Shown one piece after another: positions 39,169 through 40,148 of a stretch of 64,000 nt of DNA; the first letter of the stretch is position 1; each line of letters starts with the position of its first letter. Origin of the DNA: a virus. Taxonomy: Duplodnaviria > Heunggongvirae > Uroviricota > Caudoviricetes. The stretch is from the IMG/VR virus record IMGVR_UViG_3300047160_006104, positions 29,865 through 93,864 of that record; one strand, written 5' to 3'. The position numbers were made by a program, and so were the translations under genes. A model generated the notes under the pieces. That model was not told where the DNA came from. It was given only the letters and a program-made list of their open reading frames with translations, and ran no database searches.

Positions 39169-39300
39169 TCATTCGGTGTGGTCCTGTGATTCACGCAGCA
39201 CCGCTTCGAGGTCTTTGATGCGGCCCTCCAATCCTTTGAGCGCCCAAATTATCCCGGCCATACCGGTGAGCAGAATGGCGTCCATCGCATTGTTGAACAT
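39169..39300 (-). CDS. 43-aa membrane peptide (candidate immunity/holin-like)
   Basis: 'MFNNAMDAILLTGMAGIIWALKGLEGRIKDLEAVLRESQDHTE'. RBS AAGGA. Immediately downstream of WXG/Gly-zipper gene. Confidence 0.35.
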   Translation of the reverse strand: MFNNAMDAILLTGMAGIIWALKGLEGRIKDLEAVLRESQDHTE

Positions 39301-39305
39301 GGCTT

Positions 39306-40148
39306 CTATCCTTGTCCGTCGATCAGATTGTTCACCCAGGTCTTGCCGAGCTGCACACCGACGCCGCCGATCGCACCAGCCTCACATCCCCCGGGCACCG
39401 TGACCACATCAGCGGGTAGCAGCGGCCCAGCGATCATCGACCCGATCGCCGCCCCTCCCAGGCAGCCCATCCCCGCGGCGCTGAGTAGGTCACCGACTTG
39501 CGGGTTCTGTTCAGCGGGCATACCCGAGTCATCGGATTTGTCGAATGGTGGCCCTGGTGGCAGCACCGTCATGTTCGGCGGTGTGGGCAATTTCGGCTGG
39601 TCGGGAACGTCAGGCGGGGCGATGTCGGAGGCGTTGTCGCCGTCGGTTTTGAAGCCGGTCGCCGCGAACTGCGCGGCCGGTTGGCTGATTTGGCTGGCGA
39701 CATCCGCGTCGTAGGCCTGCAGAGCGGCGTTGCGGGTCTGCAGTTCGGTGGTACGGGCGATGATGTCGGGTGCCACCACCACAGCCATCCAGGACGGCAT
39801 GGTCGGTGGCGGGGTGACGGTGAAGTCTTCGCTGACTTGGTAGCCCTGCTGCGTGGTTTGGTCGACGGCGTCGAGCAGGGCGGCGCGCATCGCCATCAGG
39901 TTGTCGTGGCCGGTGGCTGCCGCGCCCGCCGCACCGCGCAACGCTTCAGCGTGGGACAGTGCGATGGCCCAGTCGGCGCTGTGCGCCTGCACGGCGCTCA
40001 GCTGCCCGGTCCCGGTCCACCAGGCGTTGCCGACCGCGTTAAGGGCTTGATGCCAGGTTTGTTCCCAGGTTTGCGCGGTGTGGTTCCAGTGTTGCGCGGC
40101 GTCTAACAGGTGCGACCAGTCCGCCGCACGCACCTGCGGCAGCGTCAT
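39306..40148 (-). CDS. WXG100-like N-domain + YxxxE motif + C-terminal glycine-zipper domain protein (T7SS toxin-like)
   Basis: 'NAWWTGTGQ' (W-x-G), 'QQGYQVSEDF' (YxxxE). Pro-rich linker. C-terminal 'AAGMGCLGGAAIGSMIAGPLL..GGCEAGAIGGVGV' GxxxG repeats. Confidence 0.55.
   Translation of the reverse strand: MTLPQVRAADWSHLLDAAQHWNHTAQTWEQTWHQALNAVGNAWWTGTGQLSAVQAHSADWAIALSHAEALRGAAGAAATGHDNLMAMRAALLDAVDQTTQQGYQVSEDFTVTPPPTMPSWMAVVVAPDIIARTTELQTRNAALQAYDADVASQISQPAAQFAATGFKTDGDNASDIAPPDVPDQPKLPTPPNMTVLPPGPPFDKSDDSGMPAEQNPQVGDLLSAAGMGCLGGAAIGSMIAGPLLPADVVTVPGGCEAGAIGGVGVQLGKTWVNNLIDGQG

Follow-up and report, generated by a model that had tools for sequence, protein, structure and literature searches.

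A three-gene cassette, made up of a secretion partner, a toxin-like protein and a tiny membrane peptide, lies inside an operon led by PE and PPE genes on the minus strand of the phage DNA analyzed here, a 64-kb stretch (the window) that is part of a 113.7-kb record (IMG/VR virus record IMGVR_UViG_3300047160_006104). We consider it probable that this cassette specifies a phage-borne, ESX (type VII) secreted, membrane-permeabilising toxin of the PEST/polymorphic-toxin kind together with a membrane immunity peptide. In saying so we infer toxicity, immunity, membrane activity, secretion, ESX dependence, heterodimer formation and the target, be it bacterial or eukaryotic. A first-pass annotation had placed a 280-residue and a 43-residue open reading frame (ORF) with their motifs in this region, and both were found where it had put them. 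The toxin/small-peptide pair is thus present, but the unit is larger than the interval marked at the time, as it comprises partner, toxin and peptide within the PE/PPE-led operon. The three genes are:

40145..40729, minus strand: g194, the 194-amino acid (aa) secretion partner, with an N-terminal PE/Esx-like hairpin of ~90 residues, a YxxxE motif (Y79-E83) and then a Q/G/M-rich tail.
39306..40148, minus strand: g280, the 280-aa polymorphic-toxin-type protein, with an N-terminal secretion domain, a Pro-rich linker and a C-terminal glycine-zipper module.
39169..39300, minus strand: g43, a 43-aa single-pass membrane peptide and candidate immunity protein, which starts 5 nucleotides (nt) after the g280 stop.

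The guanine-cytosine (GC) content of g280 at codon positions 1/2/3 is 0.69/0.52/0.80, as expected of a coding frame in a GC-rich genome. The third-position value and the 4-nt (ATGA) overlaps of the flanking genes indicate that g280 is translated within the operon; the g194 stop overlaps the start codon of g280 in this way, and the g43 stop overlaps the start of the next gene. A chance ORF was ruled out for g280 by the third-position GC content and the existence of 297 relatives. The corresponding values for g43 are 0.59/0.36/0.68, its ATG is preceded by AAGGA, and it was called as a gene in an independent European Nucleotide Archive (ENA) assembly too. In the peptide, a charged amphipathic helix comes after a single hydrophobic segment (mean Kyte-Doolittle value 1.76 over 17 residues).

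The relatives of g280 were found by an exhaustive HMMER search, which returned 297 of them at E<=1e-3 among 1.84 billion cluster representatives. A word-indexed protein search had recovered almost only g280 itself, probably because Gly/Pro-rich words swamped the candidates. Domain and C-terminus counts below refer to the best 150 of the 297 representatives and residue conservation to 148 aligned relatives. Homology across this mycobacterial family covers residues 2 to ~170 of g280. Beyond this point lengths and sequences diverge, and the C-termini of the relatives include GH-E, HNH_4, GmrSD_C, Amidase_6, Abhydrolase_8 and DUF6973 domains. A common N-domain combined with diverse C-terminal domains is a hallmark of polymorphic toxins. 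Members with a species name are from Mycobacterium arosiense and Mycolicibacterium vulneris, where they are annotated as 'hypothetical protein'. The family profile aligned with gp117 of prophiGD43A-1 (M. abscessus), a 'polymorphic toxin protein' (hhalign 99.8%, E 1e-29; BLASTP of g280 E 2e-6), and a typical family member matched gp117 and Dori gp88 in tblastn (E 2e-15). Homology of the N-domain to prophage toxins and the presence of toxin domains in relatives support, at the sequence level, the earlier proposal of a phage-carried polymorphic toxin of the ESX/type VII secretion system (T7SS) type with a zipper C-domain. On its own, g280 is silent in Pfam (no hit at E<=0.1), NCBIfam and PHROGs, gives chance hits only against the PDB (as a single sequence and as a profile), and has no tblastn match in phages. 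Its parts are:

39654..40148, minus strand: WXG-type secretion domain, residues 1-165, with three long helices.
40011..40019, minus strand: WxG turn W44-T45-G46, with W44 in 145/148 and G46 in 148/148 relatives.
39828..39842, minus strand: Y103-Q-V-S-E107 (YxxxE), within the family motif G-[FY]-x-V-G-E-D-x-S-V-T, after helix 2.
39534..39653, minus strand: Pro-rich linker, residues 166-205, which had been predicted and is present; predicted local distance difference test (pLDDT) score ~50-60, no predicted secondary structure, length variable among relatives.
39309..39533, minus strand: two-Cys glycine-zipper module, residues 206-280, with two predicted helices (224-241 and 253-268) and invariant C229 and C255.

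The C-terminal GxxxG-repeat domain that had been noted from the letters turned out to be a conserved module. The last 75 residues of g280 hold five GxxxG, a number that whole-protein shuffles reach in 0.085% of cases. The helices display the ladders A224/G228/G232/G236/A240 and G254/G258/G262, and in each of them a Cys directly follows a ladder Gly. Thirteen relatives gave the consensus PAExNP..G....GC..G.......P.PAE.....GC..GA..G...YL.G.W..N...G.G, in which G, GC, C, G and N are invariant. The module is found in 16 of the 150 representatives (query included), always at the extreme C-terminus, and in P0037 it is attached to an unrelated N-terminus. Judged from these sequences it behaves like a mobile, exchangeable and strictly C-terminal cassette. 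When the 13 sequences were compared with Pfam PF13488, PF13436, PF13441 and PF10439 (class IIc bacteriocins), the best E-values were 0.047, 1.1, 1.8 and 0.91, the best non-significant match being Gly-zipper_Omp (E 0.047). Among sequenced phages the module was not found outside five phages of cluster K1.

Genomic context was obtained for ten module-bearing genes, and in 9/10 of these loci a gene for a small membrane protein lies directly downstream of the module (TM, transmembrane segment):

Window (g280): 43 aa, one TM and a charged helix.
L002 (P0002): ~45 aa, architecture as in g43; missed by the gene caller.
L005 (P0013): 49 aa, architecture as in g43.
L004 (P0005): 32 aa, one TM.
L009 (P0010): 53 aa, two TM.
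L010 (P0045): 62 aa, two TM.
L011 (P0008): 64 aa, two TM.
L003 (P0076): 74 aa, two TM.
L006 (P0037): 128 aa, about four TM.
L012 (P0006): partial, Cys-rich, soluble-looking and not membrane-like.

The g43 peptide and the L002 ORF align with a Smith-Waterman score of 48, compared with 18.8 +/- 3.7 for shuffles (0/1000 reach 48); the score with the L005 ORF is 37, which 3/1000 shuffles reach. The toxin tails of L002 and L005 are close to that of g280, and the downstream peptides of L010 and L011 are related to each other. In the loci compared, the downstream peptide thus appears to co-vary with the zipper variant, as is typical of immunity genes. The small ORF is therefore conserved together with the toxin-like gene, with g43 homologues in L002 and L005, a point that the first-pass annotation had put forward as a check on its proposal.

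How might such a protein be exported? The N-domain had been described as a helical hairpin that bears both WXG and YxxxE. The AlphaFold2 (AF2) model suggests a 165-residue domain of three helices instead of a simple 100-residue hairpin. The two motifs say little by themselves, since WxG and YxxxD/E co-occur in 11% of g280 shuffles; conservation is what makes the feature real. Profile searching bore out the WxG, which is kept in the family that aligns with gp117 and is near-invariant, whereas the YxxxE did not hold up in this position: residue 103 is Phe in 127/148 relatives and Tyr in 17/148. The AF2 model has one continuous helix, residues 47-100 (54 residues), between the WxG turn and Y103, which would place Y103 ~80 Å from the turn, at the opposite end of the bundle. 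Y103-E107 is probably not the secretion motif. A conserved YxxxD/E is found on g194 instead. In L002, L004, L005 and L009 a g194 orthologue precedes the toxin gene, and every one of these retains YxxxD/E at ~residue 76-79. Because Y103 is mostly Phe and probably distant from the WxG, and because the motif of g194 is conserved, the composite signal most likely consists of Y79xxxE of the partner and W44xG of the toxin, as in PE/PPE pairs. By hhalign, the g194 family matches gp118 of prophiGD43A-1, an 'ESX complex protein' (94%, E 1.3e-7), as well as Dori gp89 (83%); g194 has no Pfam hit.

The fold of the N-domain points in the same direction without settling the family. Single-sequence AF2 of g280 was unusable (pLDDT 47.6). 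The high-confidence model of the N-domain matches PPE4, PPE15 and PPE41 (~3 Å over ~150 residues), and where a comparison with EsxA and LXG proteins had been suggested, the modeled fold resembles PPE more than either. We regard it as consistent with PPE and not diagnostic. At the sequence level, g280 has no Pfam hit to PPE (PF00823), to which 8/150 relatives match weakly (best E 9.8e-5), it lacks the PPE sequence motif, and profile comparison with the window's own PPE and PE was not significant. The WXG100 models PF06013, PF25547 and TIGR03930 found 1/150, 1/150 and 4/150 relatives, all weakly, and g280 not at all at E<=0.1. Together with the hhalign result for the window's PPE given below, the Pfam and TIGR03930 results ruled out membership in PE/PPE or WXG100 by sequence.

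The cassette is embedded in a leftward block in which, after an 87-nt gap that holds a promoter-like site, ten genes follow each other with spacings of <=36 nt and mostly overlap. Their order is PE, PPE, 89 aa, 106 aa, 194 aa, 280 aa, 43 aa, 113 aa, 129 aa and 127 aa. The elements outside the cassette are:

43068..43096, minus strand: promoter-like site TTCACA-17-TATGAT, 10/12 matches, 38 nt upstream of the PE start.
42734..43030, minus strand: PE-family protein, the first operon gene (Pfam PE E 1e-15), with YxxxE at residue 86.
41315..42697, minus strand: PPE-family protein (Pfam PPE E 1.6e-51); the coordinates are those of the longest ORF, and the true start is probably near 42541, at 'VSIYAAWPPE'.
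41046..41315, minus strand: g89, 89 aa, ends in WPD; candidate paralogue of the 127-aa protein.
40726..41046, minus strand: g106, 106 aa, 39% identical to a syntenic 95-aa gene product of L002 (E 3e-13).
38831..39172, minus strand: 113-aa coiled-coil protein.
38472..38861, minus strand: 129-aa C-terminally anchored membrane protein.
38082..38465, minus strand: 127-aa WPD protein.

The promoter-like site is the only hit in the region, but 1.7 would be expected by chance, so that its position alone is suggestive. The last three genes have starts and stops that overlap or lie <=6 nt apart; no conserved counterparts of them follow the toxin gene in L002 or L005, they have no family match in Pfam, NCBIfam or PHROGs, and they are only possible members of the cassette. 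In these same three collections g106 has no match either; g106-like genes were recognised by eye in L005 and L009. Both g89 and the 127-aa protein end in WPD, and their C-terminal 44 residues align weakly in BLASTP (E 0.034). A 41-aa ORF near the toxin gene of L003 (20..145), unrelated-looking, also ends in AWPD. These endings could reflect a common C-terminal motif or a constraint from an overlapping ribosome-binding site.

The order PE, PPE, (TM protein), g106-like, g194-like, toxin and small ORF recurs in L002, L005 and L009, so that, with the window, four independent phage-like contigs have this operon led by a PE/PPE pair. When the window's PPE was compared by tblastn with 50,697 phage records no match was found, which suggests that phage-borne PE/PPE genes are new. 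L002 derives from a related phage, as its Band_7 protein is 63% identical to the 482-aa SPFH/Band_7 protein of the window (31284..32732, plus strand); in L002 the gene follows the toxin cassette at a distance of 2 kb and shares its strand, and in the window it is 6.5 kb away on the opposite strand. In the phage-like L005 (670..7514) the genes for Lsr2, two WXG100 (EsxA/B-like) proteins, PE, PPE and a g194-like partner are followed by those for two tandem toxins. These toxins have near-identical N-domains, one ending in a GmrSD_C nuclease and the other in the glycine-zipper module, and are followed by a 49-aa TM peptide and then a 73-aa lipoprotein.

We propose that g194 and the N-domain of g280 would form a PE/PPE-like helical heterodimer, in which the YxxxE of the partner and the WxG of the toxin would serve as the signal for the host ESX system. 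The Pro-rich linker would carry the 75-residue two-helix zipper module. Once exported, the module might insert into the cytoplasmic membrane of unprotected cells, oligomerise via its Gly/Ala faces and dissipate the membrane potential, while the co-translated 43-aa peptide, located in the membrane of the producer, may block insertion or oligomerisation. Conceivable targets are rival bacteria, kin infected by a superinfecting phage, or a eukaryotic host.

Several observations weigh against this proposal. The module comprises ~55 hydrophobic or small residues without a catalytic signature and could be a membrane anchor instead of a toxin; with a Kyte-Doolittle maximum of 1.59 over 19 residues it is borderline hydrophobic, and its AF2 confidence is low (pLDDT 36-60). 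The ORF downstream of the module in L012 looks soluble. The g194 partner has twice the usual partner length and lacks WxG, and its family showed no detectable relationship to gp41 of the K1 phage Devera. The match of the N-domain to PPE folds is no better than that to generic BAR-type helical bundles, and hhalign with the window's own PPE gave a non-significant probability of 0.5%. An integrase was not found among the ORFs scanned in the window, which covers 64 of the 113.7 kb.

The main rival is a non-toxic, membrane-anchored envelope factor, which we think rather unlikely. Here the hairpin would anchor or assemble an ESX-exported protein in the inner membrane or the mycomembrane, where the protein could, for example, form a channel, exclude superinfecting phages or mask a receptor; g43 would be a structural co-subunit or insertion chaperone, and the operon as a whole would remodel the host envelope. 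Mycobacterial PE/PPE proteins act as outer-membrane transport proteins, and g280 is co-transcribed with a PE/PPE pair and further membrane proteins. Moreover, no enzymatic signature is present in its C-domain, which has the appearance of a plain hairpin of two membrane helices, and the GenBank label of the K1 homologue is merely 'WXG100 domain and membrane protein'. However, the same N-domain family carries bona fide toxin domains, and the zipper module behaves as an exchangeable unit, being found behind an unrelated N-domain and, in L005, in tandem with a nuclease toxin. The change in the type of downstream ORF with the zipper variant is also typical of immunity genes. Finally, T7SSb substrates offer a precedent, as their glycine-zipper tails turned out to be toxic (PMC12744356, PMC10434224).

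We regard it as improbable that g280 is an ESX-secreted effector against the membrane of a eukaryotic host or predator (macrophage, amoeba) in the manner of CpnT or EsxA, with the peptide only protecting the producer during export. In the literature on PEST, the target is left open and a parallel to CpnT is drawn (PMC10654092, PMC8092301), and family members occur in Mycobacterium arosiense and Mycolicibacterium vulneris, with others coming from metagenome or sequencing-run assemblies. Yet the same cassette is found in five K1 phages whose isolation host, M. smegmatis, is a saprophyte, and variation of the downstream ORF with the zipper variant as well as the tandem array of L005 would be expected of interbacterial antagonism.

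The third alternative, an accessory lysis factor (holin-, pinholin- or spanin-like) as considered in the first-pass annotation, would suit a small membrane-active module in a phage genome, and some holins contain glycine zippers, but it is very improbable and was rejected on gene position: the lysin A and lysin B genes listed below lie 9-12 kb away on the strand opposite to the cassette (39169..40729, minus strand). In addition, g280 carries a 165-residue T7SS-type secretion domain and has a dedicated partner, and the L010 homologue sits in a chromosomal-looking context with no phage structural genes nearby (12.7-kb locus).

49573..51024, plus strand: lysin A, endolysin.
51889..52707, plus strand: lysin B, cutinase-type.

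The window is phage DNA, as it encodes minor tail proteins (phrog_1565, E 2.9e-86), RecE, RecT, an endolysin and a cutinase-type lysin B. The C-terminus of an 1843-aa protein resembles mycobacteriophage minor tail proteins, and HNH/NUMOD4 endonucleases, Lsr2 and Ku are also encoded. The best matches of the Ku-like end-binding protein (60509..61411, minus strand) are the Ku proteins of ~106-115-kb mycobacteriophages (32-35% identity), and an Lsr2-like nucleoid protein and a DUF932 protein are encoded at 56102..56722 and 57584..58690 (both minus strand). The Ku/Lsr2/DUF932 set suggests that the phage is a distant relative of the large Ku-encoding mycobacteriophages. Megablast of the operon against phage and plasmid collections found no match and hence no near-identical DNA.

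Further genes deserve mention. A tRNA-Arg(CCG) gene (44831..44909, plus strand) lies just upstream of the leftward block, and a 111-aa HTH_3 (Cro/CI-type) protein is encoded nearby (45313..45648, minus strand). NUMOD4-containing ORFs are located at 51101..51892 (plus strand) and 27771..28172 (minus strand); the former also has an HNH_3 domain and interrupts the succession of the endolysin and lysin B genes, and so probably encodes a homing endonuclease. A sugar-modification block (33066..36396, plus strand) encodes a GT2 glycosyltransferase, an NAD-dependent epimerase/dehydratase and a TylF-like O-methyltransferase, and a second glycosyltransferase (phrog_12406) and another methyltransferase are found near the tail genes (9669..10328 and 12044..12778, both plus strand). 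These genes could serve virion glycosylation or modification of the host envelope. At 36672..38065 (plus strand), two adjacent Pro/Gly-rich proteins have the motif 'GGG[FY]CDF...H.HC' in common, the second with a signal-peptide-like start MKRLALLACVLTLPISW. They resemble paralogous secreted proteins that contain Cys, and the two genes converge with the toxin operon at its end. Encoded at 13230..13898 (minus strand), on the strand opposite to its neighbors, is a 222-aa protein whose C-terminal DUF732 belongs to a mycobacterial secreted/lipoprotein family. It is possibly another host-envelope moron; a DUF732 gene is also found near the toxin homologue in L010.

ESX polymorphic toxins of mycobacterial prophages are known, while most of their toxin domains, targets and roles are uncharacterised. 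The locus described here defines a compact candidate toxin module (~75 aa) and a candidate immunity peptide (43 aa), with homologues in environmental mycobacteriophages and in five cultured K1 phages. PEST-like cassettes occur well outside the prophages of the M. abscessus-chelonae group, the home of nearly all known examples, and the phage PE/PPE genes bear on the movement of PE/PPE between mycobacteria. If the module depolarises membranes, the glycine-zipper toxin paradigm would extend from firmicute T7SSb to mycobacterial T7SSa. Tentatively, we go one step further and suggest that a portable arsenal of ESX substrates travels with the lineage represented by the window, L002, L005 and L009 (at least one polymorphic toxin and a PE/PPE pair of its own, to which L005 adds an EsxA/B-like pair), that the module is the first membrane-depolarising type of T7SSa toxin, neutralised by an immunity protein that at 32-49 aa ranks among the smallest known, and that the two invariant cysteines possibly stabilise it after export. 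If this is true, phages supply a toxin plus outer-membrane or export accessories via PE/PPE.

PEST/ESX polymorphic toxin cassettes as such are already known, and the exact architecture is annotated in five K1 phages. New are the occurrence of the module in an environmental phage lineage of ~114 kb that encodes Ku and Lsr2, embedded in a PE/PPE-led operon, and the recognition that the zipper module is apparently a toxin-type mobile domain accompanied by a family of tiny membrane proteins. In PT-Imm/PEST cassettes, the gene for a small WXG100 partner is joined by those for a toxin that has a WXG domain at its N-terminus and for an immunity protein; for two PEST cassettes toxicity and rescue by the downstream gene were shown, and a PE/PPE-like heterodimer was proposed for secretion (PMC8092301, PMC10654092). 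Even PEST toxins that lack a recognisable toxin domain proved toxic in M. smegmatis, and the downstream gene gave rescue (PMC10654092); 1,063 PEST prophages were reported, all but one in the M. abscessus-chelonae complex (Abad 2023, PMC10654092). The present cassette is similar in its homologous toxin N-domain and partner, the same order of partner, toxin and immunity gene, polymorphic C-termini and a predicted PE/PPE-like fold, the geometry proposed for PEST1/2 (PMC10654092). It differs in having a short membrane module as C-domain, a 43-aa peptide as candidate immunity protein and, on the partner, an extra Q/G/M-rich tail of 100 residues. Furthermore, it is part of a PE/PPE-led 10-gene operon in a ~114-kb Ku/Lsr2 phage, whereas PEST cassettes are found in M. 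abscessus-chelonae prophages beside the att junction.

A weak tblastn hit of the module led to the cluster K1 mycobacteriophages. In Devera, gp41 is annotated as 'WXG100 protein', the 319-aa gp42 as 'WXG100 domain and membrane protein' and gp43, with 62 aa and two TM, as 'membrane protein'; a tyrosine integrase gene adjoins them, and the gp42-type cassette is present in only five phages of 50,697 records (Devera, Illumine, Dole, Anaya and Apocalypse). Like ours, it is phage-encoded and has the order partner, toxin-like protein and small membrane protein. The N-domain of gp42 belongs to the same family as that of g280 (profile 99.35%, E 6e-21), even though the two are too diverged for BLASTP, and its C-terminus is the same two-Cys zipper module (profile 98.5%, E 2e-15; 37% identity over 67 aa). 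In contrast, gp41 has 95 aa and YTDTD while g194 has 194 aa and YQAQE, and the two families are not detectably related. The small membrane proteins differ as well, gp43 having 62 aa and two TM and g43 43 aa and one TM, and the K1 cassette lies beside a tyrosine integrase without PE/PPE genes. In the literature we found annotation only and no functional study of the K1 cassette, and it is absent from the cassettes listed by Abad et al. (PMC10654092).

The closest analogy in mechanism is offered by T7SSb toxins. The glycine-zipper C-domains of EsxX and TelE permeabilise or depolarise membranes, and membrane proteins protect against TspA and EsxX acting from outside (PMC12744356, PMC10434224). 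S. aureus TspA and EsxX and S. gallolyticus TelE resemble the g280 system in having a helical T7SS targeting N-domain, a glycine-zipper C-module, small helical partners and linked immunity genes. There is no sequence relationship, and g280 has neither an LXG domain nor a Pfam match, so that this is an analogy of mechanism and not family membership. The system described here is of the actinobacterial T7SSa type, those are of the firmicute T7SSb type, and the module of g280 contains two invariant cysteines. The TelE immunity protein and the cytoplasmic one of EsxX are soluble, unlike the membrane peptide g43. M. tuberculosis EsxE-EsxF-CpnT-IFT is likewise a mycobacterial ESX-exported toxin with small helical partners encoded upstream and an immunity gene downstream; CpnT differs by its longer, double-WXG N-domain (PEST3 type; PMC10654092), its NAD+ glycohydrolase C-domain and a soluble immunity factor. 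Finally, PE25/PPE41, PE8/PPE15 and PE5/PPE4 display the same distribution of motifs, with WxG on the long subunit and YxxxD/E on the short partner, whereas g280 and g194 have no Pfam PPE or PE hit and lack the PPE motif.

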